From: Nitrospirota bacterium
Lineage (GTDB): Bacteria > Nitrospirota > Thermodesulfovibrionia > Thermodesulfovibrionales > SM23-35
Reading direction: 5' to 3'
NCBI GenBank assembly: GCA_040753575.1
Contig: JBFMEC010000003.1
Location: 1-38,243, forward strand
Length of the DNA stretch: 38,243 nt
Positions 3,918-37,562 of this stretch are shown piece by piece (positions within the stretch are counted from its first letter, which is position 1; every line of letters starts with the position of its first letter). The notes under the pieces are model-generated. The model had not been told where the DNA came from. It searched no databases and worked only from the letters and a program-made list of their open reading frames with translations. A program made the translations under genes and the position numbers.

Positions 3918-5468
3918 ATGAATATCGTCACGGCTTACATTATAACGTTTATAGCCAGTTTCTGCATTCTTGTAATTGAGATCGTGGCTGGTCGCATCTT
4001 GGCACCCTTCGTTGGTGTATCTCTTTATACATGGACAAGTATCATCGGCGTTGTCCTTGCAGGAATCAGCATCGGTGCATATCTGGGTGGAAAACTGGCG
4101 GACAGGTTTCCTGAAAGAAAGACTCTGGGATGGCTTCTGATGATTTCCGGGATAGCCACTCTTTCGATATCACCGGTAACAAATCTTGTTGCCGCATATC
4201 ATTTTCCCACATCCCTCATGTTGCGAATCCTTATTGTAACGACGATTACTTTTTTTGTTCCCAGTTGTATCCTCGGAATGATCTCTCCTGTAGTTGTTAA
4301 GCTTGCAATTCGTAATGTGGAAACTGTAGGCAATGTTGTTGGCAAGATTTATGCTTTTTCAACGCTTGGTTCAATCCTGGGAACCTTTGCAGCCGGGTTT
4401 TTCCTCATTTCCTGGATGGGGACGAGGCATATCATATTGGTGATGGGGGGAATATTAATCCTTACAGCCATTTCATGGGGTTCTTTATTTAAGGCAAAGA
4501 AGCCTGCCATCGGATTCCTTTTGCTTCCCTCCTTTATCCTCTGGGGCATATATGACTTGGCCTTTAAGCCACCTATTGATGCCCAGACTCGTTACTACAA
4601 AGAGAGTGATTATTATACTATAAAGGTTAAAAGGGCATTGAGTCCGGATGGGAAAGTGAGTTTGGAGGCCCTTGTGCTGGATAATCTGACTCACTCTTAT
4701 GTGAATTTGGAGAATCCATTGCATCTGGAATATAAATATGAAAAGATTTACTCCGAAGTTCTCAAATGGAGGTTTAAAAAAGATGAGGTCTTCAGAAGCC
4801 TCACAATCGGAGGTGGAGGATATACCTTTCCCAGATATATGGAGGTTTTTTATCAGAAGGCTCAGCATGATGTTGTTGAAATAGACCCTGAAATAACGAC
4901 GGTCGTTTACAAATATCTTGGATTGCCGAAAGAAACAAGGATACGCACACATAATACCGATGGCCGCTGGTTCGTCATGAACTGCAAAGAAAAATACGAT
5001 GTCATTTTCGTTGATGCCTACAACGATCTCTCAATTCCATACCATCTTACAACAAAGGAATTTGCCCAACTTCTCAAGAATATCCTGAAGCCTGATGGCC
5101 TCTTGTTGACAAACATTATCGACAATTTCAAGAAAGGTACATTTCTTCCTTCCTATATAAAGACATTAAGAGAGGTCTTTGGAGACGGGAACGTCTATCT
5201 GATATCAATAAGCCCCAATTTTGAAAGAATAAACATAAGCACCTTTGTTGTAATGACAGGGAAAGGCAATGTAAATATAGGGGACTTTGAATCTTATATT
5301 AAGAAATTTAGGGGTGAAGCCATTTCATCGGTAGTTCCAGAGGACATGTTGGATGAATTTCAGGAGAAGACTTATTCCGTAACTTTAAGGGATGATTATG
5401 CACCGGTTGATAACCTCATCGCTCCCGTCTTTGAAGAGCGCTTTGGCTATAACAGAAGACAGCGATAA
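3918..5468 (+). CDS. Fused polytopic-membrane/spermidine-synthase-like (SAM-dependent aminopropyl/methyltransferase fold) protein
   Basis: About 200 aa of hydrophobic helices are followed by a Rossmann region with LTIGGGGYTFPRY and VIFVDAYND, as in the fused MFS/spermidine synthase family. Confidence 0.85.
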   Translation: MNIVTAYIITFIASFCILVIEIVAGRILAPFVGVSLYTWTSIIGVVLAGISIGAYLGGKLADRFPERKTLGWLLMISGIATLSISPVTNLVAAYHFPTSLMLRILIVTTITFFVPSCILGMISPVVVKLAIRNVETVGNVVGKIYAFSTLGSILGTFAAGFFLISWMGTRHIILVMGGILILTAISWGSLFKAKKPAIGFLLLPSFILWGIYDLAFKPPIDAQTRYYKESDYYTIKVKRALSPDGKVSLEALVLDNLTHSYVNLENPLHLEYKYEKIYSEVLKWRFKKDEVFRSLTIGGGGYTFPRYMEVFYQKAQHDVVEIDPEITTVVYKYLGLPKETRIRTHNTDGRWFVMNCKEKYDVIFVDAYNDLSIPYHLTTKEFAQLLKNILKPDGLLLTNIIDNFKKGTFLPSYIKTLREVFGDGNVYLISISPNFERINISTFVVMTGKGNVNIGDFESYIKKFRGEAISSVVPEDMLDEFQEKTYSVTLRDDYAPVDNLIAPVFEERFGYNRRQR

Positions 5469-6730: not shown

Positions 6731-6823
6731 TGGCGGAGAGGCAGGGATTCGAACCCTGGGTGAGTTTTTACACCCACAACCGCTTAGCAGGCGGCTGCCT
6801 TAGACCAGCTCGGCCACCTCTCC
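6731..6823 (-). tRNA. tRNA-Ser (anticodon GCU), CCA encoded
   Basis: The reverse complement reads GGAGAGGTGGCCGAGCTGGTCTAAGGCAGCCGCCTGCTAAGCGGTTGTGGGTGTAAAAACTCACCCAGGGTTCGAATCCCTGCCTCTCCGCCA. It has a 7-bp acceptor stem, anticodon loop CU-GCU-AA, a long variable arm (GGGTG/CACCC) and a GGTTCGAATCC T-loop. Confidence 0.95.
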
Positions 6824-6873: not shown

Positions 6874-7731
6874 CTATGAACCCATATCACGATGGATGAT
6901 ATTTATACCCACAGGATATTTCTTTAGATAAAGTTGTAGCTTTTCCACGATGGCAGGAGAACGGTGGTTCCCTCCCGTACAGCCGATACCGACTGCTAGG
7001 TAAGACCTTCCCTCCTCAATATACTTGGGGATGAGAAAGTCCAGGAGATCTTTTATCTTGCGCATAAAGGCCTTAGCCTCTGGCTTTTTAAGCACAAAGT
7101 CGGAAACCCTTTTATCCGTCCCATTCAGTGGTTTTAATTCGGGCACGAAGTTCGGATTGGGCAAAAATCTTACATCGAAAAGTAGATCGACATTCTGAGG
7201 TGCGCCGAATTTAAATCCGAAGGAGATGAGACTGACTGACATCGCTTTGTTAACAGGTTTTCCATAAAGAGATGATACAAACTGTCTCAATTGATGTGGC
7301 GTAAATGGAGATGTATCGACAACCCGATCAGAGATCTCCCCGAGAGGAGAGAGTCTTTCCTTTTCAATCCTTATAGCTTCTTCAATATTTCCTCCGAGTG
7401 GATGGGGCCTCCTTGTCTCTTTAAACCGTCTCAAAAGTACGTCCCTTTCAGCCTCGAGAAAGAGGATGTCAGTGGGATATTCCTTCTTCAGTTTTCTAAG
7501 TACATCACTGCTTTCAGACAAAAATTCTTTTTCCCGTATGTCAATCCCGATTCCGATTTTTTTGATCTCTCTGTTTCTTGATATTATCGAAACGAATGAA
7601 TCGATGAGGGCAATGGGAAGATTATCGACGCAAAAAAAGTTGGAGTCTTCAAGGGCTCTAAGGGCAACGGTCTTGCCAGATCCAGAAAGGCCGGTTATGA
7701 TGACTATTCTTGGAAAAGTGCGATCCTTCAC
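6874..7731 (-). CDS. rapZ: RNase adapter protein RapZ (YhbJ)
   Basis: P-loop GLSGSGKT at the N-terminus and C-terminal IGCTGGNHRSP. It sits downstream of rpoN-hpf, the conserved position. Confidence 0.9.
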   Translation of the reverse strand: MKDRTFPRIVIITGLSGSGKTVALRALEDSNFFCVDNLPIALIDSFVSIISRNREIKKIGIGIDIREKEFLSESSDVLRKLKKEYPTDILFLEAERDVLLRRFKETRRPHPLGGNIEEAIRIEKERLSPLGEISDRVVDTSPFTPHQLRQFVSSLYGKPVNKAMSVSLISFGFKFGAPQNVDLLFDVRFLPNPNFVPELKPLNGTDKRVSDFVLKKPEAKAFMRKIKDLLDFLIPKYIEEGRSYLAVGIGCTGGNHRSPAIVEKLQLYLKKYPVGINIIHRDMGS

Positions 7732-26510: not shown

Positions 26511-26540
26511 TTGACTTTCGAGTTATTATTTTGATATAAA
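26511..26540 (+). promoter_or_regulatory. Candidate sigma70 promoter TTGACT-N18-TATAAA with an upstream A5T5-CC-A5T5 block (26488-26509)
   Basis: Hexamers were read directly. The A/T-tract block abuts the -35 like an UP element. The site lies 32 nt after the pheT stop and 23 nt before repeat copy A. Confidence 0.4.
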
Positions 26541-26562: not shown

Positions 26563-26620
26563 AAAGCCACGAAGGCTTAAAAGAAGACCAGCAGGTCTAA
26601 AAGTTTTCGTGGCTTTTTTT
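26563..26620 (+). terminator. Structured repeat copy A, shaped like an intrinsic terminator (11-bp outer stem, inner hairpin, T7 run)
   Basis: AAAGCCACGAAGGCTTAAAAGAAGACCAGCAGGTCTAAAAGTTTTCGTGGCTTTTTTT. AAAGCCACGAA pairs with TTCGTGGCTTT. The inner hairpin is GACC-AGCA-GGTC. Confidence 0.6.
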
Positions 26621-26741
26621 ATTTGCCGCGGGGAAAGGAGACCGCTGTGGCAAAAATCTTCACTACAATATGAAAAATCCTCAAACTTTTTCAAACCAGA
26701 TGTTAATCATCATTCACATTATCGAAACGGAGGATTTAATT

Positions 26742-27869
26742 ATGGGTACTAAATTTCAGAAAATTTCAACATTACGACTGTTGGCCTTTTTTATATTTTT
26801 TGTGGCCCCCTTTTCAGTTCAGGCGTATGACTTGAATGAAAAGTTATCGATAGAAGGAACTTTAACAGGAGTCTACCAGTATGGAGATTTTGACTTTGAA
26901 GGAATTAAAGACTCTGACAGGGGGTCAGCTGTTCTTGATCTCGGAGTAAACTTCCATCCGGCGGATAAAGACGAATTTCAGATAACCCTCAGCTACGCTG
27001 CTGGAAACGCATGGAATAAAGTAGGTCCTTTCTCTTTGAGTCTTTACGCGGATGATCTTGAAGCTGACCTCAAAAACATAAATGGGAGAGATAGAGATTA
27101 TCTACTTGAGGCATGGTATAAGCACACCTTCGCTTTGTCAAAAAACGCATCACTTGCAGTAACAGGAGGCATCATAGATTCTACGACCTACATTGATGAC
27201 AATAAGTTTGCAAACGACGAAGTGGCGCAGTTCATGAATGAAACATTCGTGAATCATAAGAATGTAAATTTACCTTCCTACGACCTCGGAGGAGTTATAG
27301 AGTTAAATATCTCGAGCTTTTCCATCAGGGCGTTGATGATGAATACGAAATTTGAAGCCGAAGAAAATGACTTCAAAAACTATGATTACTATGCACTACA
27401 ACTCGGGTACACCCTCAATACCTCTTTAGGTGAAGGTAATTATAGGATCTATGGTTTTACAACGAACGATAAGTTTCCATGCTGGGATGAGAGGGATGAA
27501 GGTAGTCTTTATGGTTATGGAATCTCTGCAGATCAAGAACTGAGTAAGATAATCGGGGTTTTTGCAAGGTTTGGCTGGCAGAATGATAAGGCAGTAATAG
27601 TTCACGATGAGATTTATTCCGGAGGTGTCAATATAAACGGGAAATTATGGGGGAGAGAGAAAGACGAGATAGGTCTTGGTTATGCATATCTCGATGGTGC
27701 TGACTGTGGAGATATTGACAACACAAATGCTATCGAGGCTTACACCAAATTCAAGATATCCGATTTCAGCGATGTAACCTTTGATGTCCAGTACATTAAT
27801 GATAACATGAAGCATGGTGAAGACAGAGATGGATTTATTTATGGGATCAGGTTAAACGCGTATTTCTAA
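26742..27869 (+). CDS. Outer-membrane beta-barrel porin (OprB/carbohydrate-porin-like)
   Basis: The start is trimmed to ATG 26742 (GGAGGA 7 nt upstream). It has a signal peptide ending ...FSVQA, an alternating beta-strand pattern and a C-terminal ...RLNAYF with terminal Phe. Confidence 0.65.
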
Positions 27870-27906
27870 CCAATTTAAAAACTTAAATTATAAGGAGGTA
27901 GTAACC

Positions 27907-28680
27907 ATGAAAAAAGGGATCGTAAAAGCAGTATTAACAACTATGATACTCATCGTATCTGTTTCCCTGTCTTGGGCACATTTTGGAGTGATCATCCCCT
28001 CTGATGACATTGTTTCAAAGCAGGACAAAAAGGAGATAACCCTTCAGGTAAAATTCATCCATCCTTTTGAGGGACACTATATGAATATGGAAATGCCAAA
28101 GGCATTTGGCTTTATGATGGGCGGGAAGAAGCATGATCTCCTGCAAACCCTGAAAAAGAAAGCAGTAAAGGGTTTTACTACATGGGAGGCTTCATATAAG
28201 ATTACGCAGCCCGGAGACCGCGTCTTCTTTGTCGAACCAGCACCTTACTGGGAACCTGCAGAAGAAAGTTTCATCATTCATTACACGAAGGTCATAGTGA
28301 ATGCCCTCGGTCTTGAGGAAGGATGGGATAGTGAGGTAGGACTTAAGACCGAGATAGTGCCTTTAACAAGACCTTACGGACTCTGGGCAGGTAATGTGTT
28401 TCAGGGGATTGTAAAAGTGGATGGCAAACCTGTACCTTATGCAGAGGTGGAGGTTGAATATTACAATGAAGGGGGAAAGATAAAGGCACCCGATGAACCA
28501 TATATAACCCAGGTTATCAAGGCTGATGAAAGCGGTGTATTCACCTATGCAATGCCAAAGGCTGGATGGTGGGGATTTGCAGCTCTGAATACTGCTGATT
28601 ACAAGCTGAAGCATGACGATAAGGAATACCCTGTTGAGATCGGTGCTGTGCTGTGGGTGAAGACGAGGGAGATGAAATAA
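27907..28680 (+). CDS. Periplasmic DUF4198 protein, the NikK/CbiK-type accessory component of the ECF Ni/Co transporter
   Basis: The signal peptide ends [12 protein letters not shown]. It has a DUF4198-like beta-sandwich ([26 protein letters not shown]...). Its stop overlaps the cbiM start (TAATG). Confidence 0.75.
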
Positions 28681-29291
28681 TGCATATATCAGAAGGTGTA
28701 CTTTCGGCATCCGTCCTTTTGACGGGTGCCCTGATTACCGTGGGTGGAACAGCTTTGGGACTAAAGAAGATGGATTATGAAAAGATACCCGAGGTAGCAG
28801 TTCTTTCATCAGCCTTTTTTGTCGCCTCATTGATCCATGTTCCGATAGGTCCATCAAGTGTTCATTTAGTTCTCAATGGCCTTGTAGGTATACTTTTAGG
28901 CTGGATGGCTTTTCCTTCTATTCTTGTAGCCCTTGCACTGCAGGCACTCCTGTTTCAATTTGGCGGATTTACCTCTCTTGGTGTAAATACCTTTAATATG
29001 GCAGCACCGGCTGTTATAGCCTATTATCTCTTTAACTTTACAATAAGAAAAGCAAATCATTTCATAAGCATGCTTGCAGGGTTTGGTGCGGGCCTGACGG
29101 GTCTAGGACTTGGTGCACTATTCGTTGCAATAGCCCTCGTAAGCACAGGAGAGAGCTTTCTTAATGTTGCAAAGATACTGGTTGTTGCTCATCTTCCTGT
29201 GATGGTAATTGAAGGAATTATAACATCCTTCTGCGTTGTCTTTTTGAAAAAGGTAAAACCAGAAATTCTGGAGGAGGTGGGAAAAAGATGA
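28680..29291 (+). CDS. cbiM: ECF-type Ni/Co transporter substrate-capture subunit CbiM/NikM
   Basis: The start is trimmed to give the N-terminus MHISEGVLS, the family hallmark Met-His metal-binding terminus. It has 6-7 TM helices. Confidence 0.9.
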   Translation: MHISEGVLSASVLLTGALITVGGTALGLKKMDYEKIPEVAVLSSAFFVASLIHVPIGPSSVHLVLNGLVGILLGWMAFPSILVALALQALLFQFGGFTSLGVNTFNMAAPAVIAYYLFNFTIRKANHFISMLAGFGAGLTGLGLGALFVAIALVSTGESFLNVAKILVVAHLPVMVIEGIITSFCVVFLKKVKPEILEEVGKR

Positions 29292-29947
29292 AATCTGGAT
29301 TCAGGCATCTTATTTTTTGTTTACTTTTTACTTTTTGCTGTCTACTATTTGTTTCTCTTGCCAATGCCCATAAAGTAAACATCTATGCTTATGCTGAGAA
29401 TGGGTTGGTTCACTCAGAAAGTTATTTTGTTGATGGCACGAAGTGCAAGAATTCCGTTTTAGAGGTTTTTGATGAAAAAGACGGAACCAAACTCCTTGAG
29501 GGTAAGACTGATGAAGAAGGAAAGTTTTCTTTTAAAATCCCTAAGGTCACATCCCTTAAACTCGTCCTTCATGCGAGCATGGGACATCAGGCCGACTTCA
29601 CCCTTGGTGAAGATGAGGTGAGAGAGGCAATGGGTGTGAAACAGCCTCCCAAGTCACCATCTGTTAAGGTGCCCTCAAAATCAGAAGGCAGTGCTTCAAT
29701 GAAGACTCAAAAAAAGGAGACTGCAGAAATATCAGAATTAAAAGGTATATCTGAATCCGAGATAGAAGCAATCGTTGAGAGTGCTGTCGATAAGAAGCTC
29801 CAGCCTGTAATGAGGATGCTTGTTAAGCTACAGGAAAGCAGTGGAAAGCCAGGCATTACCGAAATAATTGGCGGAATTGGTTATATTATAGGTATTTTAG
29901 GAATTGTAGCGTATTTCAAAGCCAGAAGGAGAATGAAGAGAGACTGA
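29288..29947 (+). CDS. NikL-like accessory protein: signal/TM, small beta-sandwich (carboxypeptidase-regulatory-like), C-terminal TM anchor
   Basis: ...ANAHKVNIYAYAENG...LEVFDEKDGTKLLEGKTDEEGKFSFKIPK...HASMGHQADF, then the ITEIIGGIGYIIGILGIVAYF TM helix. It occupies the CbiN position between M and Q. Confidence 0.6.
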   Translation: MKSGFRHLIFCLLFTFCCLLFVSLANAHKVNIYAYAENGLVHSESYFVDGTKCKNSVLEVFDEKDGTKLLEGKTDEEGKFSFKIPKVTSLKLVLHASMGHQADFTLGEDEVREAMGVKQPPKSPSVKVPSKSEGSASMKTQKKETAEISELKGISESEIEAIVESAVDKKLQPVMRMLVKLQESSGKPGITEIIGGIGYIIGILGIVAYFKARRRMKRD

Positions 29948-29948
29948 T

Positions 29949-30698
29949 ATGCACCTCGAGGAATTTGCAGAAGGTAACTCTTTTTTACACAGGCTTGATC
30001 CAAGGGTTAAATTTATAACCGCCATCCCGTACATCTTTGTCATCGCTGTTATGCAAGGAACAAAAGGTCCATTGTTAGCCCTTATGATTTCCCTTTTAAT
30101 GATAGCTCTTAGCCGCATAAGCTTTAAAAAGCTTATTGGAAGGTTGATTGTTGTAAATACCTTTATATTGGTTCTATGGATATTCCTCCCCTTTAGTTAC
30201 CCTGGAGAGGCAGTTTTTATTATAGGTTCTCTAAGGGCTACCCATGAGGGTTTTCTTTATGCCCTTTCCATTACACTTAAGGCCAATGCCATTGTGCTTG
30301 CAACCATAGCAATCCTTGGCACATCAGAAATATTTTCCCTTGCCCATGCCCTTGTACATCTAAGAGTGCCTGACAAGCTAATTCACCTATTTTTTTTCTT
30401 CTACAGATACATTAGCGTTTTACACGAGGAATATACGAGATTAAAAAATGCAATGGCCATAAGATGTTTCCAGACAGGAACAAATATACATACATACAGA
30501 ACATATGCATATCTTGTTGGTATGCTGATAGTAAGGAGTTATGATCGCTCCCAGAGGATTTACAGGGCTATGTTGTGCAGAGGTTTTGGTGGTAAGTTTC
30601 GTGTAATGAGCCATTTTGAACTTAAAAGAGGAGATGTATTATTCGGTATACTGATGGTCTTGATAACATCATTTATGGGACTTTTGTTTCTTTTATAA
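29949..30698 (+). CDS. cbiQ: ECF transporter transmembrane (T) component CbiQ/NikQ
   Basis: The protein is polytopic. It has LDPRVKF near the N-terminus and a conserved Arg-rich cytoplasmic loop (AMAIRCF...). It lies between cbiM-like and ATPase genes. Confidence 0.85.
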   Translation: MHLEEFAEGNSFLHRLDPRVKFITAIPYIFVIAVMQGTKGPLLALMISLLMIALSRISFKKLIGRLIVVNTFILVLWIFLPFSYPGEAVFIIGSLRATHEGFLYALSITLKANAIVLATIAILGTSEIFSLAHALVHLRVPDKLIHLFFFFYRYISVLHEEYTRLKNAMAIRCFQTGTNIHTYRTYAYLVGMLIVRSYDRSQRIYRAMLCRGFGGKFRVMSHFELKRGDVLFGILMVLITSFMGLLFLL

Positions 30699-30701
30699 AG
30701 A

Positions 30702-31364
30702 ATGAGCATGGAAGAATATTTAATAGAGATATGGGATCTGGGCTTTAGCTATGCCAATGGGAGAAAGGTATTTGACGGCTTGAATTTTTCTCTTAAAAGG
30801 AGAGAGAGGATTGGCCTTACAGGCCCCAATGGTGCTGGCAAGACGACATTCTTTCATCTGATAACAGGGCTTTTGAAACCTGATTCAGGTGAGATAAAAA
30901 TATTTGGGAAGGTCAGAAGGCATGAGAAAGACTTCATAGAGGTAAGACAGAAGATTGGTCTTTTGTTTCAGGATTCTGATGACCAGCTATTTTCTCCAAC
31001 TGTTGAGGAGGATATTGCCTTTGGTCCATTAAATCTTGGGAAATCCCTTGAAGAGACAAGGACTATTGTTAGAGAAACCTGTGAGAGATTAGGGCTTTCG
31101 GGTTTTGAGAAACGGGTTACCCATCGGCTTTCAGGAGGCGAGAAAAGGCTTGTGGCACTTGCCACAGTTGTGGCTATGAATCCTGAATGTTATTTATTGG
31201 ATGAGCCTATTACAGGACTTGATGAAAAAACAGCGGATAAATTTTTAAGATACCTGAAAGAGCATGCAGATACGTATGTCATAATTACCCATGATCGAGG
31301 ATTCTTAAAGGGTGCAGTAGACAGGATTTATATGTTAAATGATAGTAAAATTACCGAGATTTAA
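30702..31364 (+). CDS. cbiO: ECF transporter ATPase CbiO/NikO
   Basis: Walker A GPNGAGKTT, signature LSGGEKR and Walker B YLLDEP. Confidence 0.9.
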   Translation: MSMEEYLIEIWDLGFSYANGRKVFDGLNFSLKRRERIGLTGPNGAGKTTFFHLITGLLKPDSGEIKIFGKVRRHEKDFIEVRQKIGLLFQDSDDQLFSPTVEEDIAFGPLNLGKSLEETRTIVRETCERLGLSGFEKRVTHRLSGGEKRLVALATVVAMNPECYLLDEPITGLDEKTADKFLRYLKEHADTYVIITHDRGFLKGAVDRIYMLNDSKITEI

Positions 31365-31457
31365 TCAAAATGGTTTTTTGAAAAAAAACTATAGAGATTA
31401 ATTCAATTTAATCTACGAAGGACTAAGCAGAGACCCCTTAGAAATTTTTAGGACTGA

Positions 31458-31510
31458 AAAGCCATGAAGGCTTTGCACCAGATAGTGATCTTTCGTGGCC
31501 TTTGTGTTTT
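31458..31510 (+). terminator. Structured repeat copy B, terminator-like
   Basis: AAAGCCATGAAGGCTTTGCACCAGATAGTGATCTTTCGTGGCCTTTGTGTTTT. GCCATGAAGG pairs with CTTTCGTGGC (two G-U pairs). The inner hairpin is CAC-CAGATA-GTG and the tail is T-rich. Confidence 0.55.
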
Positions 31511-31538
31511 GAGGACCTTTTGACCTAATCAAGCAACG

Positions 31539-31589
31539 AAGGAGCAATCCTCCTAAGAAAGGAGGCGAAAAAAAATCTTAGGAGGAAGC
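31539..31589 (+). promoter_or_regulatory. Leader with one anti-SD (CCTCCT) and three SD-like boxes; an 11-bp hairpin can sequester the real SD of the 66-aa ORF
   Basis: TCCTCCTAAGA (31548-31558) is the exact reverse complement of TCTTAGGAGGA (31576-31586), which contains the SD 4 nt before ATG 31590. The same CCTCCT can instead pair with AGGAGG (31560-31565) or AGGAG (31540-31544). Confidence 0.45.
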
Positions 31590-31790
31590 ATGGAAGAACT
31601 CGTAAAAATAAGGAGTTTACTTGATTACTGGTTAGAACATAACAATGAGCACGCAGAAATGTATATGAATTGGGCAAATAAGGCTTTGTCATTTGGTAAT
31701 GAAGAATTATCAAAAATATTCATTAGGCTTTATCTTGAATCAAAAAGATTGAATAGGCTTTTTGAGGCGGCTAAGAAAGCGAGCAGTTAG
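31590..31790 (+). CDS. Small helical protein (66 aa) with an EHNNEH motif
   Basis: A strong SD is present. The sequence MEELVKIRSLLDYWLEHNNEHAEMYMNWANKALSFGNEELSKIFIRLYLESKRLNRLFEAAKKASS is a predicted helical hairpin with an HxxxH motif. I recognise no family. Confidence 0.6.
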   Translation: MEELVKIRSLLDYWLEHNNEHAEMYMNWANKALSFGNEELSKIFIRLYLESKRLNRLFEAAKKASS

Positions 31791-31850
31791 TTCTGAAGAA
31801 CTGAATCTGCGCGACTGAATTTTACCGTTTCAGGCTGTATAAAACATTTT

Positions 31851-31901
31851 GCCATGAATAGGCCATGAAGGCTTTCTGCCAGAAGGCGGATGTCGTTGTG
31901 G
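31851..31901 (+). repeat. Structured repeat copy C (degenerate, no T-run), with a partial tandem duplication of the 5' box
   Basis: GCCATGAATAGGCCATGAAGGCTTTCTGCCAGAAGGCGGATGTCGTTGTGG. The 5' box is GGCCATGAAGGC. The inner hairpin is CTGCC-AGAA-GGCGG and the 3' half is TCGTTGTGG. Confidence 0.4.
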
Positions 31902-31990
31902 AGTATTATACTCAAATCCCGAGGGACATGACGGTTATAATACTAATAAAAATCCGGAGAGGCTTTAGCCTTATACCAGGAGGATTTGTT

Positions 31991-32263
31991 ATGAAAGGAA
32001 AACACGAACACAAACATTTGCATTCTCACAGGCATTTGCATAAACACTCCCACGAGCATCCTCACAAGGACAAAAAACACAGCCATGAGCATTTCCATGC
32101 ACACAGTCATGAACACGAGCACGAGCATGAACACGAACATACTCACAAAGGGAAATCTGAAAAGCATGATCATGAGCATAAAGACAAGCATGGTTCTCAT
32201 GATCATGACCATCCCGGACACGAGAAAGTAATACACAAGCATAAAGGCAAAACGAAAAAATAA
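31991..32263 (+). CDS. Histidine-rich protein, 90 aa with 33 His in an alternating HxH pattern; probable metal-binding/storage protein
   Basis: The start is trimmed to ATG 31991 (CCAGGAGGA upstream). The sequence is MKGKHEHKHLHSHRHLHKHSHEHPHKDKKHSHEHFHAHSHEHEHEHEHEHTHKGKSEKHDHEHKDKHGSHDHDHPGHEKVIHKHKGKTKK. There is no signal peptide and no Cys. Confidence 0.75.
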   Translation: MKGKHEHKHLHSHRHLHKHSHEHPHKDKKHSHEHFHAHSHEHEHEHEHEHTHKGKSEKHDHEHKDKHGSHDHDHPGHEKVIHKHKGKTKK

Positions 32264-32325
32264 AAAGAAGGTTCTGAACAAGAAGTTCAGAATATAAGTA
32301 ACATTTAATACGATTTAGAAAACAT

Positions 32326-32373
32326 AAAGCCACGAAGGCATGCACCGCGAAGGTGAGCTTTTGTGGCTTTTTT
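32326..32373 (+). terminator. Structured repeat copy D, shaped like an intrinsic terminator
   Basis: AAAGCCACGAAGGCATGCACCGCGAAGGTGAGCTTTTGTGGCTTTTTT. The outer stem is up to 13 bp with G-U pairs. The inner hairpin is CACC-GCGAA-GGTG, followed by a T6 run. It is preceded by a separate 8-bp hairpin TTCTGAAC/GTTCAGAA (32272-32292). Confidence 0.6.
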
Positions 32374-32397
32374 GTGTGGAGGGAAAAGATCGGAACC

Positions 32398-33150
32398 ATG
32401 AAAGGACAGAGTTACGGGATCATAACCTCGGTATCTATCCACACTATTATCATCACAATATTTCTGATGCTGTCTATTCATAAAAATGTTAATGAACTTA
32501 AAACGTTTTATATTCAATTCACGCAGATAAGGGAACCCACTATGCAAGAGCCTTCACCATTCAAAGAAATAAAGAAACATATGGTGTCTGTGGCAAACAA
32601 AAGGGATGTTAGAGAAAAAGAACATGATAACAGGATAAAAGAAGAAATACCTTTAATAAAAGAACCGCCCGTCGAAGAAAGGGAAACTGTAATTAGGAAT
32701 GATGCAACTGAGAGTTATGAGGTAGTCAAGGTAGCAAGCCTTCCTGCTTCTGACACAAAGGAATCTGCACCTATATATGGCAAAGGTCATCAAGGGAATG
32801 AAGGCACAGATAGTAGTATATCATATACGGCATCATCTGGCAGTACATCTTCTGGCATTGAGACCGAGTTCGGCTCCAGAGGAGCCCCCGCTTTCTTGAA
32901 AAGGCAATTGCCTGTTTATCCCATTCTTGCGAGAAAACTCGGCAAGGAGGGCAAGGTAGTTTTGAGGCTTTTTATAAATGAAAAAGGGCAATTGAAGGAT
33001 ATTGAAGTGGTTGAGCCGGCTGGCTATGGCTTTACAGAAGCTGCTGTAGAAGCGGTAAAGATGTCGACCTTTTCACCTGCACGTGAAAAAGGTGTAAGCA
33101 CTGCATCAAAGGCCTTGCTTACAATCCGTTTTGTTCTGAAAAAGGTCTGA
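32398..33150 (+). CDS. tonB: TonB-family energy transducer
   Basis: The start is trimmed to ATG 32398, because the GTG at 32353 lies inside the terminator-like repeat. It has an N-terminal TM helix, a charged/Pro linker and a C-terminal TonB domain (PVYPILARKLGKEGKVVLRLFINEKGQLKDIEVVEPAGYGFTEAAVEAV). Confidence 0.85.
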   Translation: MKGQSYGIITSVSIHTIIITIFLMLSIHKNVNELKTFYIQFTQIREPTMQEPSPFKEIKKHMVSVANKRDVREKEHDNRIKEEIPLIKEPPVEERETVIRNDATESYEVVKVASLPASDTKESAPIYGKGHQGNEGTDSSISYTASSGSTSSGIETEFGSRGAPAFLKRQLPVYPILARKLGKEGKVVLRLFINEKGQLKDIEVVEPAGYGFTEAAVEAVKMSTFSPAREKGVSTASKALLTIRFVLKKV

Positions 33151-33171
33151 TGCCAAGGAGAAGAAATACAA

Positions 33172-33606
33172 ATGGAATGGCTTAAGGCATTGGTTGATTA
33201 CGGAATCATCGGACTTCTAATAATTATGAGCATTATTGCAGTCGCAATAACAGTGGAAAGATATCTCATATTCAGGAAAATCAGGGTTGAAAACTTCAAT
33301 GATAAGAAAACCCTTGAAATAGAACTCACAAAAAAAATGCATATCATAGCAACTATAGGAAGCAATGCACCGTATATTGGATTGCTCGGCACTGTGCTTG
33401 GCATTATGCTCACATTTTATACAATGGGCAGGGAAGGACTGATGGATACCGGCAAGATCATGACAGGGCTTGCCCTTGCACTGAAGGCTACCGCTATAGG
33501 GCTTGTTGTTGCTATCCCCTCCATTACCTTTTATAACTTTCTTCTGAGGAAGGTGAAAGTGCTGATTGCACAATGGGAGACCATAAATGGAAGAGAAAGA
33601 ATTTGA
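33172..33606 (+). CDS. exbB: MotA/TolQ/ExbB-family proton channel
   Basis: APYIGLLGTVLGIM...ALALKATAIGLVVAIP, three TM helices. It sits next to tonB and exbD. Confidence 0.85.
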   Translation: MEWLKALVDYGIIGLLIIMSIIAVAITVERYLIFRKIRVENFNDKKTLEIELTKKMHIIATIGSNAPYIGLLGTVLGIMLTFYTMGREGLMDTGKIMTGLALALKATAIGLVVAIPSITFYNFLLRKVKVLIAQWETINGRERI

Positions 33607-33976
33607 CTATATAAATGTTATTCCGCTTGTGGATGTGATGCTTGTATTGCTCACAATTGTGTTAACTACATCGACGTTCATAGCCTCTGGAATGATCAAC
33701 GTATCGCTTCCGAAGGCATCTGCTGAACACAAGGAGATTCTGAAAAATCAGATTATATGCATTGATAGAGACGGAACAGTCTATCTCAATTCATCACCGA
33801 TAACACTTGATGAACTAAAAGACAAAATGCTTCTTCTAAACAAAATAACCCCTATCTTGGTACGTGCAGATAGGGACATCAGGCTTCAGGTATTTGTGGA
33901 TGTCTTAGATATCATCAATAACCTGGGATTCAGGAAAGTTGCAATACAGACAGAAAAGGGAGGTGAGATAAAGTAA
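33587..33976 (+). CDS. exbD: ExbD/TolR-family biopolymer transport protein
   Basis: INVIPLVDVMLVLLTIVLT, a single TM helix and a periplasmic domain. It overlaps the exbB 3' end. Confidence 0.85.
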   Translation: MEEKEFDYINVIPLVDVMLVLLTIVLTTSTFIASGMINVSLPKASAEHKEILKNQIICIDRDGTVYLNSSPITLDELKDKMLLLNKITPILVRADRDIRLQVFVDVLDIINNLGFRKVAIQTEKGGEIK

Positions 33977-34134
33977 AAAGTTAAAAATGAAAGTGAAAAG
34001 TTAGAAGAAAATCGAAGGGCAAGGATGACCTTTGGGGGGACACCCTGCCCTTGAGGGAAACGCTGCGAAATACAACGCCCCCTTGTCATTTTAACAGAAA
34101 AAGGGGGTGGGAGAAAAATTCAGGAGGTGAAAGG

Positions 34135-36165
34135 ATGGAAAGGGGTTTAAGAATTTTTATGAGTTGTCTTTTGAGCCTATTGCTAATTATTGCATCAGTT
34201 GCATTGGCAGAGGAAAATGAAAAGGAAGAAACAGAAAAGGAAAAGGAGAAAAAAGAAGAAGCGAAATCTGAAGAAATGCCTGAAGTAGTAGTTATGGGAG
34301 AGCCCTTGGTAAAGGGTTTGGAAGAAAAGCTGAAGGAGCAACCTACGACTATTCATTCAGTCTATGGAGAAGAGATTGAAAATATGGATATTAAAAGGAC
34401 CCTTGATATTATCAGGAGAATTCCCGGTGTTATGGCAGAAAACTATAACCAGCAGGGTGTTGCTGCGGCGTATTCTTTCAGGGGGTTCAGGGCAGGCCAT
34501 GGGATCGGAGCAGGTTGTTATCTGGACGGAATACCCTACAATGAAATAAACCATGTGGATGGGGATGGATATCCCGATTACAACACCATTCTGCCCGAAT
34601 CCATTGAGAAGCTGGAGGTTATTAAGGGGCTATTCTCCCCACTTTATGGAGGTTATGCACAGGCAGGCATTCTGCATTACATTACTAAAGACAGAGGCAA
34701 TGACACAAAATTAAAGCTCTCTACCGGCTCGTGGAATTATCAGCGGGGGGTCTTTGAAATATCCCGTGAATTTGAACGTTTCTATACTTATAACGGCATT
34801 GATTTTGAAAGAGGTGATGGATACAGAGACCATAGTGAATGGCAGAAAGGGACGGTTTTTTCACGGTTTGGATACAAAATTGATGAAAAATCAAATGTCA
34901 GACTAACCCTCCATTCCTATAAGATTGTCTGGGATGCTCCGGGCCCGCTTCCAAAAGCAGATTGGGATGATGGTAATTTGAAGAAGGCTACAACAGACGG
35001 CGGCGGTGATAAACAAAAATATATGGCCAGCGTCGACTACAGCCGCAGCCTGAGTAAATCTTCCGAGATTAATATAGTCGGATATGGCTATCACAGTGAT
35101 TTTACCAGGTGGGTAGGTGCGAGCAATGAGGAGAGGAACGATTTAAGGGACACATTCGGCTCACGCGTAATGTACTTCCTCTCAAGTCACATTGCAGGAG
35201 TAGAAAACGGCCTCATAATCGGTGTGGACTACGAATTTAATAACTCTGATGCGCACAAGTGGAGTGTCCAACACCCCAAAACAAGAGAGCGAAAACAGGA
35301 GACATTATCCGGTGAATTCGATTTTCACAACATAGCACTCTATTTTCAGGACGATATCAGGCTGTCCCCTTTAATAAAATTTTCGTTGGGCAGCCGCTAC
35401 GAGATACTGAAAGGTGATCTGAACAATAAACTTACTGACAAAGAAAGTTCTTACAATGAAGAGGTATTCAACCCGAAAGCTGGAGTACTAATAACACCCG
35501 TTAAAGGATTCGATATATTCGGCAATGTTGGAACAGGTTTTGTGCTTCCTGCAGGATTTAAAAAATTTGAAAATGCCAAACTCGACCCTTCAAGGCTAAC
35601 CTCTTATGAAGTTGGAACAAGGTTTCAACCTCTTGCAAAATCACTCTTTCAGTTAGCCCTTTTTCGCACTGATACCAAAGACGAGGTAATTATAGACCCA
35701 ATTACCTTGGAGGAAATAAATGCAGGCGAGACAAGACGAGAGGGTGTTGAGGTAAGCGCTGAATATTATTTCATGCCAGTTTTACTTGTCTATTTAAACG
35801 GTGTTTACCAGAAGGCAAAGTATACAGATTACAACACTCAAAGCGGGGATTTCAGCGGCAAAGATATACAGAGAGTGCCTAAGTATATAGCAAGCACAGG
35901 TATAGAGTATTTCCCAGCAAAGGGATTTTGGGGGAGTCTTACAGGAACTTATACGGGCAAACGGTGGACTGACATCCAAAATACTGTACGTGAGGATGAT
36001 TTTTTTGTTGCTAACGCCTTACTTCGTTATGCCTGGCAGAAATATACGGTAACACTCTTTGCCAATAATCTCTTCGATAAAAAATACGCTGAGTTGCGCG
36101 GTGCTACCGACTATTATCCCAATGATCCGTTTAATGTTACTTTGAGTTTCAGTATGAAATTTTAA
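34135..36165 (+). CDS. TonB-dependent outer-membrane receptor
   Basis: The start is trimmed to ATG 34135 (AGGAGGTGA upstream). It has a signal peptide, an acidic/Lys low-complexity tract, a TonB-box-like PEVVVMG, a plug (IEKLEVIKG) and a 22-strand-type barrel ending ...LSFSMKF. Confidence 0.9.
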   Translation: MERGLRIFMSCLLSLLLIIASVALAEENEKEETEKEKEKKEEAKSEEMPEVVVMGEPLVKGLEEKLKEQPTTIHSVYGEEIENMDIKRTLDIIRRIPGVMAENYNQQGVAAAYSFRGFRAGHGIGAGCYLDGIPYNEINHVDGDGYPDYNTILPESIEKLEVIKGLFSPLYGGYAQAGILHYITKDRGNDTKLKLSTGSWNYQRGVFEISREFERFYTYNGIDFERGDGYRDHSEWQKGTVFSRFGYKIDEKSNVRLTLHSYKIVWDAPGPLPKADWDDGNLKKATTDGGGDKQKYMASVDYSRSLSKSSEINIVGYGYHSDFTRWVGASNEERNDLRDTFGSRVMYFLSSHIAGVENGLIIGVDYEFNNSDAHKWSVQHPKTRERKQETLSGEFDFHNIALYFQDDIRLSPLIKFSLGSRYEILKGDLNNKLTDKESSYNEEVFNPKAGVLITPVKGFDIFGNVGTGFVLPAGFKKFENAKLDPSRLTSYEVGTRFQPLAKSLFQLALFRTDTKDEVIIDPITLEEINAGETRREGVEVSAEYYFMPVLLVYLNGVYQKAKYTDYNTQSGDFSGKDIQRVPKYIASTGIEYFPAKGFWGSLTGTYTGKRWTDIQNTVREDDFFVANALLRYAWQKYTVTLFANNLFDKKYAELRGATDYYPNDPFNVTLSFSMKF

Positions 36166-36329
36166 CTCAGAGACAAAAAAGAGAATTTTGTTTGGGCTAA
36201 ATTCTAATTATAGGCCTATAAAATTTGGAGGGAGGTGATATATGAAGCTGCTGGTTAGGATTTTAAAAGTCTAAGTGTATAAATTCTTATTAAATAAGAT
36301 GAGAGCAAAATAATCTCTACGGAGGAAAC

Positions 36330-37049
36330 ATGTGTAGAATAATCATAAGAAGCATATTAAGCGTTTTAATGGTGTTCACGTTTTTATGTCCTGTTTTCGC
36401 CCATGATATATGGGTAGAAAAACAAGATGGGAAACTTATTATTTTATATGGTCATGTCGACAAAAATAAGTTTGAGTCCATAGAGCCAGCGAAAATAAAA
36501 GAGGTAAAAGGATTTGACAAGAACGGGAAGGACATGAGAGTGAAAATTGAGCAGAACAAAGATAGTTTATCAATATCCCCTGCAAAAGAAGTAGCGGCTA
36601 TCGAACTATTTTTTGATGGTGGATACTGGGTAAAAACAACCGAGGGGTATAAAAATATATCAAAACGGGAGGCTAAAGAGTATATCGAGTCTATGCACTC
36701 CATAAAATATGGTAAATCTCTTTTCAGCTGGAACCGCAAGTTTGTAGAGCCCTTTGGAATGAGATTTGAGATAATTCCATTAAAAAATCCCTTTGAGATA
36801 AAAAAAGGGAAGGTGCTTCCAATAAAGGTGCTTTTTGAAGGCAAGCCTCTTGAAGGTGCATCAATCAAACTATCGGGTTATGGAAAAGAGACAACAGAGT
36901 TGGTAACTAATAAAAATGGTACGGCAGATATTGTTATTGAAAAGGCGGGAATTCAGATAATCACTGCACGACATAAGATTCCACTTAAAGATAACCCCGA
37001 TGCTGATAACCTTTCTCTTGGAACAGCATTGACTTTTGAAGTGAAATAG
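36330..37049 (+). CDS. Second periplasmic DUF4198 (NikK-like) protein
   Basis: The signal peptide ends VFA-HDIWVEKQDGKLIILYGH. The beta-sandwich segment LFEGKPLEGASIKLSGYG...NKNGTADI parallels the protein at 27907-28680. Confidence 0.75.
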   Translation: MCRIIIRSILSVLMVFTFLCPVFAHDIWVEKQDGKLIILYGHVDKNKFESIEPAKIKEVKGFDKNGKDMRVKIEQNKDSLSISPAKEVAAIELFFDGGYWVKTTEGYKNISKREAKEYIESMHSIKYGKSLFSWNRKFVEPFGMRFEIIPLKNPFEIKKGKVLPIKVLFEGKPLEGASIKLSGYGKETTELVTNKNGTADIVIEKAGIQIITARHKIPLKDNPDADNLSLGTALTFEVK

Positions 37050-37562
37050 ATGATTAGAATTATTATAACAGTGCTTCTGCTCCTGATATCATCAGGGGCA
37101 GAAGCCCATTCTGTCCATTATCAGGTAGAAAACAAGGGCATCAGTGTGCGGGTGTTCTATGCAGAGGATGATTCGGCAAGTTATTCCAAGTATGAGATAT
37201 TCGGGCCGGGAGACACAATTCCCCATCAGAAAGGGCGAACCGACAAAAACGGCTTCGTCTCGTTCCTTCCCGATCGTCAGGGGAAATGGGTGGTAAAGGT
37301 CTATGGAGAATCCGAGCATGGAATGCATGGCGCACAAATCGAGGTTGACGTCAACGAGGATCTCTTTATGGTCTCTTTCAAAAAACCTCTCGTTGCACAG
37401 TATAGAAAGGCCTTTGTGGGCATTAGTTTCATTCTGGCAATATTTAGCCTATGGACTCTATTGAAAAACCGAAAAAGCAAAAACAAAATATCAAAACATC
37501 ATTTTTCTGAAAAAGCAATTGATTATGGATTGTCAGAGAGGAGAAAAGATTCCGAAAAATAA
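37050..37562 (+). CDS. Second NikL-like protein (signal peptide, small beta-sandwich, C-terminal TM anchor)
   Basis: AEAHSVHYQVENKGISVRVFY...HQKGRTDKNGFVSFLPDRQGKWVV...HGMHGAQIEV, then the FVGISFILAIFSLWTLL TM helix. It has the same architecture and AH.V / G(K/R)TD..G.(F/V)SF landmarks as 29288-29947. Its ATG abuts the upstream stop. Confidence 0.55.
   Translation: MIRIIITVLLLLISSGAEAHSVHYQVENKGISVRVFYAEDDSASYSKYEIFGPGDTIPHQKGRTDKNGFVSFLPDRQGKWVVKVYGESEHGMHGAQIEVDVNEDLFMVSFKKPLVAQYRKAFVGISFILAIFSLWTLLKNRKSKNKISKHHFSEKAIDYGLSERRKDSEK

Follow-up and report, generated by a model that had tools for sequence, protein, structure and literature searches.

Candidate attenuators in the leaders of nickel, cobalt and corrinoid uptake operons: a conserved terminator-type RNA element from a Nitrospirota metal locus and its relatives

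Gene organization of the window

The window analysed in this work is a whole stretch of 38,243 nucleotides from a Nitrospirota bacterium (assembly GCA_040753575.1, contig JBFMEC010000003.1, positions 1 to 38,243), which carries a metal-uptake locus and four copies, named A to D, of a structured repeat. According to Pfam and NCBIfam, the gene order around the repeats starts with pheS and pheT, which are followed by copy A and by the porin-nikKMLQO operon. Genes for two small proteins separate copies B, C and D, and a second uptake operon, tonB-exbB-exbD with the gene of a TonB-dependent receptor (TBDR), lies beyond copy D. The features of the locus are presented in Table 1.

Table 1. Elements, leader features and genes of the metal locus in the window
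Feature	Position	Strand	Details
Promoter-like site before copy A	26511..26540	+	-35 TTGACT 26511-26516; -10 GATATA 26533-38 or TGaTATAAA 26532-40
Copy A, leader element of porin-nikKMLQO operon	26563..26620	+	covariance model (CM) 59.1 bits, E 3e-10; 5' box 26563-26576; P2 26564-26578 (AAGCC-ACGAA-GGCUU); P3 26586-26597 (GACC-AGCA-GGUC); 3' arm 26603-26613; U7 26614-26620
3' extension of leader A	26625..26640	+	GCCGCGGG, able to pair with 3' arm CGUGGC (helix P5), then purine tract GGAAAGGAG
OprB-like porin, DUF4198 (NikK-like), CbiM/NikM, NikL, CbiQ/NikQ, CbiO/NikO	26742..31364	+	downstream of copy A; Pfam, NCBIfam
Weak P1-like hairpin of copy B	31412..31422	+	UCU-ACGAA-GGA; 3 bp, uncertain; 35 nt upstream of box
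Copy B, between nikO and 66-aa gene	31458..31510	+	CM 32.0 bits, E 1.5e-4; 5' box 31458-31471; 3' arm ~31489-31500; U-run interrupted, 31500-31510
66-aa HW-EHN-EH protein	31590-31790	+	between copies B and C
P1 of copy C	31789..31802	+	(A)GUUC-UGAA-GAAC(U)
Copy C, degenerate	31860..31901	+	CM 10.4 bits, E 4.8, partial match, no U-run; box AGGCCAUGAAGGC 31860-31872; P3 CUGCC-AGAA-GGCGG 31876-31889; poor 3' arm
His-rich 90-aa protein	31991-32263	+	between copies C and D
P1 of copy D	32272..32292	+	UUCUGAAC-AAGAA-GUUCAGAA; 33 nt before box
Copy D, leader element of tonB-exbB-exbD-TBDR	32326..32373	+	CM 47.9 bits, E 7e-8; box 32326-32339; P3 CACC-GCGAA-GGUG 32343-32355; 3' arm 32357-32367; U6 32368-32373; downstream, Shine-Dalgarno (SD) sequence GGAGGG 32378-32383 (within 5 nt of U-run) and tonB ATG 32398
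TonB, ExbB, ExbD, TBDR, DUF4198, NikL-like protein	32398..37562	+	downstream of copy D; Pfam, NCBIfam

Copies of the element

A first-pass annotation of this DNA had described the four copies, all in one orientation, and each of them was recovered at its place on the plus strand. The CM used on the window was built from 54 copies of other genomes. Three copies are solid and one, copy C, is decayed, although its box 9-mer and the loop of its inner helix, P3, are typical of the family. When the copies were compared with intrinsic terminators (hairpin plus U-run), copy A presented a 16-bp outer helix followed by U7 and copy D a 14-bp outer helix followed by U6; copy B has an interrupted U-run and copy C has none. 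Near-identical counterparts of copy A are present in locus L016 (the L-numbers are labels of the loci compared in this analysis) and at the syntenic place in the loci selected by NikM, described below.

The inner helices of the four copies differ in sequence and keep their pairing, as had been noted earlier. Folding of each copy against shuffled sequences separated A (-29.8 kcal/mol, z -5.8) and D (-28.7 kcal/mol, z -5.0) from the shuffles; copies B (z -1.3) and C (z -1.9) folded no better than these.

With up to 2 mismatches allowed, AAAGCCAYGAAGGC is found 7 times in the window, where chance would give 0.43. Four of these sites are the 5' boxes, two are 3' arms (those of A and D) on the opposite strand, and the last, at 1887, is unrelated. 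The 9-mer CAYGAAGGC occurs, within the window, in the four copies only. A CM scan of the 38 kb revealed no further significant site and none at all in the housekeeping part (the other 32 kb), in agreement with the initial observation that the box is confined to the metal locus. The heptamer AYGAAGG, whose recurrence in the spacers had also been pointed out, is common (23 occurrences in the window) and was dropped as a signal by itself, although its instance at 31415 sits in a weak hairpin at the position that P1 occupies in the family.

Architecture of the leaders

The anatomy of the leaders was read from the 140 nt upstream of many family members. As predicted from these sequences, the full unit is a near-consensus promoter, a small hairpin (P1), an A/U-rich linker of 25-45 nt, a long hairpin with its U-run and a ribosome-binding site 20-60 nt downstream. 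The first-pass annotation was right on the repeats themselves and had overlooked the strong upstream hairpins of D and C, as well as the promoter-like site before A.

From the position of this site, the transcript of copy A would begin only ~12 nt before the hairpin. Homologous TTGACT/TTGACA sequences with a -10 of GATATT type are found in the same place in leaders L126, L127, L132, L167 and L175. In general, a promoter-like -35/-10 pair lies at most 170 nt upstream in 28 of 93 elements; the controls gave 4/93 (downstream) and 5/93 (opposite strand). Many loci have a GGAG-type ribosome-binding site and a start codon within ~20-60 nt of the U-run, too near for another promoter to fit in between.

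P1 has a freely varying stem and an (N)NGAA loop closed by C-G. It does not appear in every leader: it was detected in 37/87 elements, whereas shuffles gave 2.5 and the control region 2. The distance from the end of P1 to the box is most often 25-45 nt, the linker ranging overall from 2 to 115 nt, and in Firmicutes P1 is only 2-14 nt from the box (L035, L017). In the window, the tandem pair of P1 and P2 is seen with copies D and C, weakly with B and not with A. The P1 of copy D is of the type seen in L060 and L087 (CCUGAAC-RCGAA-GUUCAGG), and the spacing of the P1-like hairpin of copy B equals the P1-to-box distance of the family.

P2 (GCC-AYGAA-GGC) can be folded from the 5' box alone and resembles both P1 and P3. 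It lies wholly in the 5' arm of the terminator, and the two folds are mutually exclusive, in line with the earlier remark that the 5' box can fold on itself in competition with the terminator stem. The following covariation was drawn from related sequences. The first and last positions of P2 covary from G..C to A..U in L146, L196 and two L066 copies; they do not in L176 and L154. The stems of P3 also covary (GACC/GGUC, CACC/GGUG, GAUC/GAUC, GGUC/GACC and AACC/GGUU), with loops AGNA or NNGAA.

Copy A and its relatives, here called type-A leaders, present an additional helix, P5, in which the 3' arm CGNGGC pairs with a conserved downstream GCCN'CG that is followed by GGAAAGGAG. In the alignment of these leaders, P5 is 98.9% paired. 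The variable position N of the arm is paired with its downstream partner in 11 of 11 cases (C-G 6, U.G 3, G-C 2) and with the invariant box A (A15) in just 3/11. The L143 group, three sequences whose P5 was read by eye and not from the MAFFT alignment, has U-A at this position. As P2, P5 excludes the terminator. In the terminators of type A, an A.C or A.G mismatch is retained in 8/11 cases and the lower stem has an invariant G.U. Three type-A leaders (L144 2779-2867, L148 2703-2791 and L190 197-285) carry an extra hairpin of ~25 nt between the 5' box and P3, being otherwise unchanged.

The tract GGAAAGGAG is the SD sequence of the first real gene in L016, L063, L080 and L143, and in other relatives nothing conserved follows it. 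In the window (26640-26672) it is followed, after 6 nt, by GTG and an 8-codon mini open reading frame (ORF; GTG GCA AAA ATC TTC ACT ACA ATA TGA). Attenuation by a leader peptide was considered and rejected: AUG occurs only in the AUGAA variants and is absent from the ACG copies (such as A and D), and there is no conserved short ORF.

Loci selected by NikM homology

An unbiased sample was obtained from 80 metagenome loci that were picked solely by homology to the NikM of the window (60-94% identity), in which the CM gave 28 plus-strand matches. Among the 27 loci with a full 5-kb upstream flank, the CM found the element in 16. Inspection by eye added L192, where the element lies directly upstream with the variant box GUCACGAAGGC, overlooked by the CM, bringing the count to 17/27. 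In 15 of those 16 loci the element is ~1.9-3.1 kb upstream of nikM, before the upstream genes (usually the porin and/or nikK), as is copy A; in L196 nikM itself follows it directly. A copy is also present downstream of nikO in L142 and L143, where it comes after the homolog of the 66-aa gene, roughly in the place of copy B. Tandem copies ~105 nt apart, under one promoter, precede nikK in L134 (2642-2802), L135 (257-421), L136 (2041-2201) and L137 (3919-4086), and recall tandem riboswitches or attenuators.

Every element of this set but one has the core CCAYGAAGG unchanged. Identity to the consensus is 91% for the 5' box and 77% for the 3' arm, and the changes in the 3' arm comprise 26 G.U wobbles against 7 A.C mismatches. 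The U-run is found on the gene strand only, and the 5' A-run is missing from many copies. The unequal arms, the G.U bias, the one-sided U-run and the missing 5' A-run point to the RNA of the gene strand as the target of selection and speak against a DNA palindrome. Then, the selected RNA structure that had been suggested from the four copies alone is upheld by the covarying inner and upstream helices, by the near-invariant 5' box in loci picked by their protein, and by the strand of the U-runs.

In L166 (3632-4051) and L197 (3741-4157), a gene for NikR (PF08753 plus RHH) is located directly upstream of nikK and the RNA element is absent there. Judging from this gene order, the two loci represent a classical regulator swap between orthologous operons. 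The spacers past the NikR gene contain GTAGCAC...GTAACAC-like repeats, which may be a NikR box.

Distribution among genomes

The pattern AAAGCCAYGAAGGC-N10-40-TTYGTGGC was searched over 185,579 species-representative genomes, and the box-plus-arm pattern was found in at least 120 genome stretches from ~118 assemblies; a rough estimate of the random expectation is ~8 matches, a figure inflated by hairpin terminators. The counts given here refer to the matches listed. By record title, ~66 stretches belong to Desulfobacterota, 15 to Nitrospirota and 10 to Firmicutes. Each assembly has one or two stretches, and only two assemblies give two; three complete chromosomes of 6-8 Mb have one each.

A long hairpin with a U-run is present in 89 of 126 pattern matches. 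At least one family of nickel/cobalt (Ni/Co) or corrinoid uptake lies within ~7 kb in 63 of the 84 terminator-type loci (75%), which establishes for this sample the association with metal-transport loci on which the first-pass annotation had left the matter to be decided. Neighbours were counted by tblastn with the window proteins and by clustering of all locus ORFs, followed by Pfam. Over the pattern loci (at least 120), the most frequent are ABC ATPases (38), TBDR (30), CbiM (23), CbiQ (20), DUF4198 (17) and NikL-like proteins (14), followed by BtuF-like proteins (13), TonB, ExbB and ExbD (11 each), FecCD (9), CbiK chelatase (9) and S-adenosylmethionine (SAM) methyltransferases (8); NikA-type SBP_bac_5 proteins and their permeases are also among the neighbours. 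The proteins of these loci are 30-60% identical to those of the window, and the element is always oriented with the downstream gene. The suggestion of a locus-specific element stands as far as it is tied to the metal locus; it is not private to this locus, being a motif of regulon type over several phyla.

Three cultured Firmicutes carry the element. In Thermohalobacter berrensis CTT3 (L035), it is followed by genes for an FmdE-Zn-finger protein, an ECF S-component, methyltransferases and a NikA-like binding protein. In Desulfotruncus arcticus DSM 17038 (L066), three copies precede a methyltransferase as well as a surface protein with a NikA-like ABC system, and in Desulfofundulus thermosubterraneus DSM 16057 (L090) a NikA-like system follows the element. 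Other genes observed near the element encode nicotianamine-synthase-like proteins (PF03059, 2 loci), DtxR-type repressors (2), MetE (2) and a prismane/CODH-family protein; these neighbours hint at the production of an opine-type metallophore in the same regulon.

About 20 pattern matches without U-run, from Bacteroidota, Planctomycetota and Acidobacteriota, have no uptake-gene neighbours. In L003, L022, L055, L058, L071, L096, L101 and L120, all without U-run, the match is part of a longer palindrome of 8-nt periodic units (CACGAAGG / CACAAAGC), hosted by Planctomycetota, Acidobacteriota, Bacteroidota and Chloroflexota and again with no metal-uptake neighbours. This palindrome seems to represent a repeat family of its own, matching the pattern by chance.

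Comparison with known RNA families

Searches with Rfam 15 over the window and the scanned loci returned just tRNAs and some cobalamin riboswitches, with no riboswitch overlapping the element. At E up to 10, the metal locus of the window and one complete P1-containing leader gave only noise. Thus, neither at the gathering threshold nor at the relaxed one did the comparison with Rfam raised by the first-pass annotation yield a known family. The description of the motif was not found in the searchable literature, including two Breaker-lab surveys of non-coding RNAs, and a literature search by sequence string returned PCR primers only. The element is then a multi-phylum family absent from Rfam 15 and from the literature searched.

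Cobalamin riboswitches (RF00174) were detected in 10 of the 37 loci scanned and never adjoin the element: they are 240 nt to several kb away or on the other strand. They occur, with up to 128 bits, near the element in L011, L020, L023, L025, L038, L039, L068, L084, L104 and L113. In L113, the locus that was read through, the riboswitch (4023-4207) has a terminator to itself, and further downstream a new promoter (from 4603) is followed by P1 and then the element (from 4737). The presence of both in the same neighbourhoods suggests a different signal for each, and these loci would combine units under B12 control with others under that of the element. The two share an overlapping regulon (cobalt/corrinoid uptake, CbiK), leader terminators and loci; unlike the riboswitch, the element has no aptamer or Rfam match and forms separate units, with their own promoters in L113.

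The closest architectural likeness considered is with leaders bound by ANTAR proteins (EutV, NasR, AmiR), whose eut 13-mer is AGCAANGRRGCUY. As in these leaders, the element presents two small hairpins with conserved loops and stems free to vary, the second hairpin being made from the 5' strand of the terminator so that the folds are exclusive, and several such terminators may occur in one gene cluster. The 3' half of its loop, G-A-A, also fits the G-R-R of the eut 13-mer. The ANTAR target RNA has been described by dual hexanucleotide loops with A at position 1 and G at position 4 (PMC8934654). In contrast, the loops of the element have 4-5 nt (AGAA, UGAA, AYGAA, AAGAA, GCGAA), with G third from the 3' end, and a strict ANTAR target was rejected by this measure. 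The element also differs in its long variable linker, in a third similar hairpin inside the terminator and in its metal-uptake regulon, and no ANTAR gene was identified in the neighbouring ORFs, among the commonest families listed.

In the ribonucleic antiterminator (RAT) of LicT/SacY, a conserved hairpin overlaps the 5' arm of the terminator and its stabilisation by the protein prevents termination; the RAT, ~29 nt long, consists of one hairpin with internal loops and is recognised by CAT domains that the phosphotransferase system controls. The element shares the overlapping hairpin and has no sequence similarity to it. Guanidine-II (mini-ykkC) riboswitches have two small hairpins with conserved loops and a variable linker, their ACGR tetraloops forming a kissing interaction. 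The element is likewise made of two small conserved-loop hairpins joined by a variable linker; unlike guanidine-II, its base before G is mostly A, which makes the kissing pair impossible, its gene context is another one, and it has no match in Rfam.

For the HMP-PP (thiS) riboswitch, conservation of the terminator arm beyond the needs of pairing was reportedly the clue to an embedded aptamer. The title of the published report on it names a terminator-embedded aptamer (PMC6478431). The element is similar in having a strongly conserved sequence in the terminator and a very small size; it differs in consensus and ligand class, and its conserved bases lie in repeated hairpin loops.

With the NiCo riboswitch (czcD motif, RF02683), the shared theme would be a response to Ni/Co at the RNA level. 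That riboswitch is a four-helix junction that turns on efflux, whereas the present element precedes uptake genes and would switch them off when metal is plentiful; RF02683 gave no match to it. The NikR regulon has the same targets (nikKMLQO and TonB-dependent uptake), with an equivalent upstream position in L166 and L197. NikR is a protein on a DNA operator, while the element is an RNA structure in the transcript.

Proposed function

We propose that these elements are conditional intrinsic terminators (attenuators) in the leaders of Ni/Co and corrinoid uptake operons, a reading that we hold to be somewhat on the probable side of even. An attenuator or protein-binding RNA was one of the options raised for the four copies at first; conservation, covariation, position in the leader and uptake-gene neighbours support it, and from them we infer regulation.

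The terminator is predicted to be more stable than the P2 alternative by ~11 kcal/mol (-27.0 vs -15.4 kcal/mol in leader A and -37.5 vs -26.2 in leader D). Consequently, the default state would be OFF and read-through would need help. By default, the 3' arm would displace P2, the terminator would form and transcription would stop. Under metal shortage, a trans-acting factor that recognises hairpins with GAA loops would clamp P1/P2 during transcription, no terminator would form and the polymerase would read into the uptake genes. In type-A leaders, the downstream strand would then pair with the freed 3' arm (P5), locking the read-through form.

The factor would most likely be an oligomeric RNA-binding protein with activity set by Ni/Co status. 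A protein is favoured because the conserved bases lie in the loops of repeated hairpins on a variable linker, as is typical of sites for oligomeric proteins and not of ligand pockets. The input is most likely nickel and/or cobalt status, as the gene neighbourhoods suggest; B12 itself is less likely, since ordinary B12 riboswitches are found next door. In the window, copy A would gate porin-nikKMLQO and copy D would gate tonB-exbBD-TBDR; copy B would end the nik operon and gate the 66-aa gene, and copy C would be a decayed copy.

Some points weigh against attenuation. P2 has 3-5 bp and the terminator is favoured over it by the margin given above, so that read-through requires an outside contribution. 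P1 is missing from the type-A leaders, copy A included, and is present in fewer than half of the elements, just the 37 of 87 mentioned. No recurrent RNA-binding regulator was found among 150 neighbouring ORFs (half of the unclustered ones, with the 25 commonest Pfam families listed), where the regulators named by Pfam were GntR (3), DtxR-type (2) and MarR (2). The selection of genomes by an exact pattern, among the matches listed, biases both the copy number per genome and the invariance of the box in that set, and the unbiased set, with 16 distinct elements, is small and covers a narrow phylogenetic range. Some copies, such as B and the elements between convergent genes, could be plain operon-end terminators. 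Finally, regulation, signal and factor are all deduced from sequence comparison.

In a wider sense, the family may be the RNA half of an unrecognised system of Ni/Co riboregulation, either as a new class of riboswitch that senses the metal, or a metabolite of metal status, within a terminator, or as the target of a new metal-dependent RNA-binding antiterminator; it would take over the function of NikR at nik and TonB-dependent uptake operons in Desulfobacterota, Nitrospirota and Clostridia. To this broader proposal we give about even weight.

Alternative explanations

It is possible, though rather unlikely, that the RNA senses its signal directly as a riboswitch, with P1/P2/P3 or the imperfect terminator helix binding Ni2+/Co2+ or a metabolite of metal or corrin status and with no protein involved. 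A metal signal would suit the logic of the regulon and the replacement of NikR, the sequence of the terminator arm is conserved far past the need for pairing, the tandem copies of L134-L137 are typical of riboswitches, and no recurrent regulator gene was found among the 150 neighbouring ORFs covered. In type-A leaders, the mismatch kept in 8/11 and the invariant lower-stem G.U could make termination ligand-dependent. On the other hand, the conserved bases are in loops and closing pairs and not in pocket-forming junctions or internal loops, the linker may be as short as 2 or as long as 115 nt, type A does without P1, and nothing resembles the NiCo or cobalamin aptamers. An uptake gene would also need read-through in the ligand-free state, yet the unaided RNA favours the terminator by ~11 kcal/mol.

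An improbable explanation is that the elements are constitutive terminators or insulators, or the 3' ends of short leader small RNAs (sRNAs), with conservation due to an sRNA seed, an Hfq-type architecture or shared descent. Copies A and D are textbook hairpins with U-runs, copy B is at an operon end, and Hfq-type sRNAs are built in the same order, from promoter and hairpin through an A/U-rich linker to terminator and U-tail. In addition, the gene clusters have clearly been exchanged between phyla. A constitutive terminator placed 20-60 nt before the ribosome-binding site, past the only visible promoter, would however silence the operon. As for descent, at 30-60% protein identity neutral spacers would be expected to be scrambled, yet the box is invariant and precedes different genes (nikM, nikK, porin, tonB, TBDR, btuF-like and nikA-like). 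The covariation of the alternative helices P2 and P5 also speaks against simple termination or an sRNA end.

A DNA operator bound by a metal-dependent repressor, either the inverted repeat GCCACGAAGGC ... GCCTTCGTGGC or the palindrome AAGCC-N5-GGCTT within each arm, is very improbable. The element is indeed palindromic, adjacent to promoters and regulon-wide, and NikR-type operators have long spacers, as in GTATGA-N16-TCATAC of E. coli. The spacing of its arms is not fixed, varying from ~10 to 65 nt; the arms are unequal (91% vs 77%), with changes of G.U type on one strand, the U-runs flank the repeat on a single side, and the unbiased set lacks 5' A-runs. The covarying stems of P1 and P3 are explained only by structure in RNA or a single strand.

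A mobile repeat that happens to terminate, similar to repetitive extragenic palindromes (REP) or miniature inverted-repeat transposable elements (MITE), had been the other option of the first-pass annotation and has still less in its favour. A short palindromic unit with conserved ends, a variable middle and several copies in one locus would suit it, but the ~118 assemblies for at least 120 stretches and the single stretch per complete 6-8 Mb chromosome, among the matches listed for the exact pattern, do not agree with a dispersed repeat. Uptake genes in 75% of the listed terminator-type loci (63/84), an orientation that is always that of the downstream gene and the lack of any further copy in the 32 kb of housekeeping DNA of the window point the same way.

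That the element belongs to a cobalamin riboswitch, as a fragment or as its expression platform, is barely credible: its regulon overlaps the classical B12 regulon (CbiMNQO, BtuBFCD-like, CbiK, corrin methylases), the riboswitches occur in the same neighbourhoods, and we take GCCAC...GAAGGC to resemble their GCCACUG...GGGAAGGC and GGUCAGAAGACC to resemble the B12 box, yet RF00174, RF01482 and RF01689 gave no match even at E up to 10, and membership was rejected by this null together with the separate terminator and promoter in L113.

Accompanying proteins and other features

The 66-aa protein has two helices and the conserved motif LL.HW.EHN.EH...Y..WA.KA, and its gene is located downstream of nikO in many loci. 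Homologs were found in L125, L137, L143, L145, L154, L156, L026, L043, L049, L052, L080 and L084. In L026 and L043, the frame is apparently continuous with that of the NikO ATPase, the homolog being fused to the NikO C-terminus, and the homologs of L049, L080 and L143 bear His-rich tails. No match was found in Pfam, NCBIfam or the Protein Data Bank (PDB), with just weak sub-threshold scores to EncFtn- and DUF892-like families. From its sequence, the protein looks like an undescribed metal-binding module, accessory or regulatory, of NikMQO transporters. Its candidacy as an RNA-binding regulator was set aside, as it resembles a metal-binding transporter domain and lacks counterparts both among known families and in the PDB.

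Between copy B and the 66-aa gene (31536-31590), the arrangement GGAG-CAAUC-CUCC-UAAGAAA-GGAGG was observed, directly upstream of the real SD sequence, AGGAGG. Its CCUCC tract can pair with either flanking GGAG(G), an arrangement that may constitute a translational switch. The 90-aa protein consists largely of H-x-H/E/D/K repeats, as an Hpn-like histidine-rich protein, and is without family match.

A tRNA of 90 nt is located at 6734-6823 on the minus strand (Rfam 57.9 bits), with a length that would fit a class II tRNA, and L016 has a tRNA-Sec near its element copies. A 12-bp hairpin with an ACGAA loop (UUUAAUUCGGGC-ACGAA-GUUCGGAUUGGG; 7133-7161, plus strand) lies within the minus-strand ORF 6874-7731 and is probably unrelated to the element.

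Biological significance

The import of nickel and cobalt is controlled by DNA-binding repressors (NikR and Nur/Fur-type), and that of cobalt also by B12 riboswitches. To our knowledge, the only metal-sensing RNA for Ni/Co is the NiCo riboswitch, which controls efflux. If the proposed function is true, the element would represent a new regulatory layer of the trace-metal economy at nikKMLQO, nikABC-like, TonB/TBDR and corrinoid-uptake operons. The element is found in the absence of NikR and alongside ordinary B12 riboswitches, in anaerobes heavily reliant on Ni/Co enzymes such as hydrogenases, CODH/ACS and corrinoid enzymes. With ~110 nt and three cultured carriers, it is a compact and testable candidate for riboswitch or antiterminator discovery, and it may be used as a practical marker for the annotation of metal-uptake regulons in metagenome-assembled genomes.

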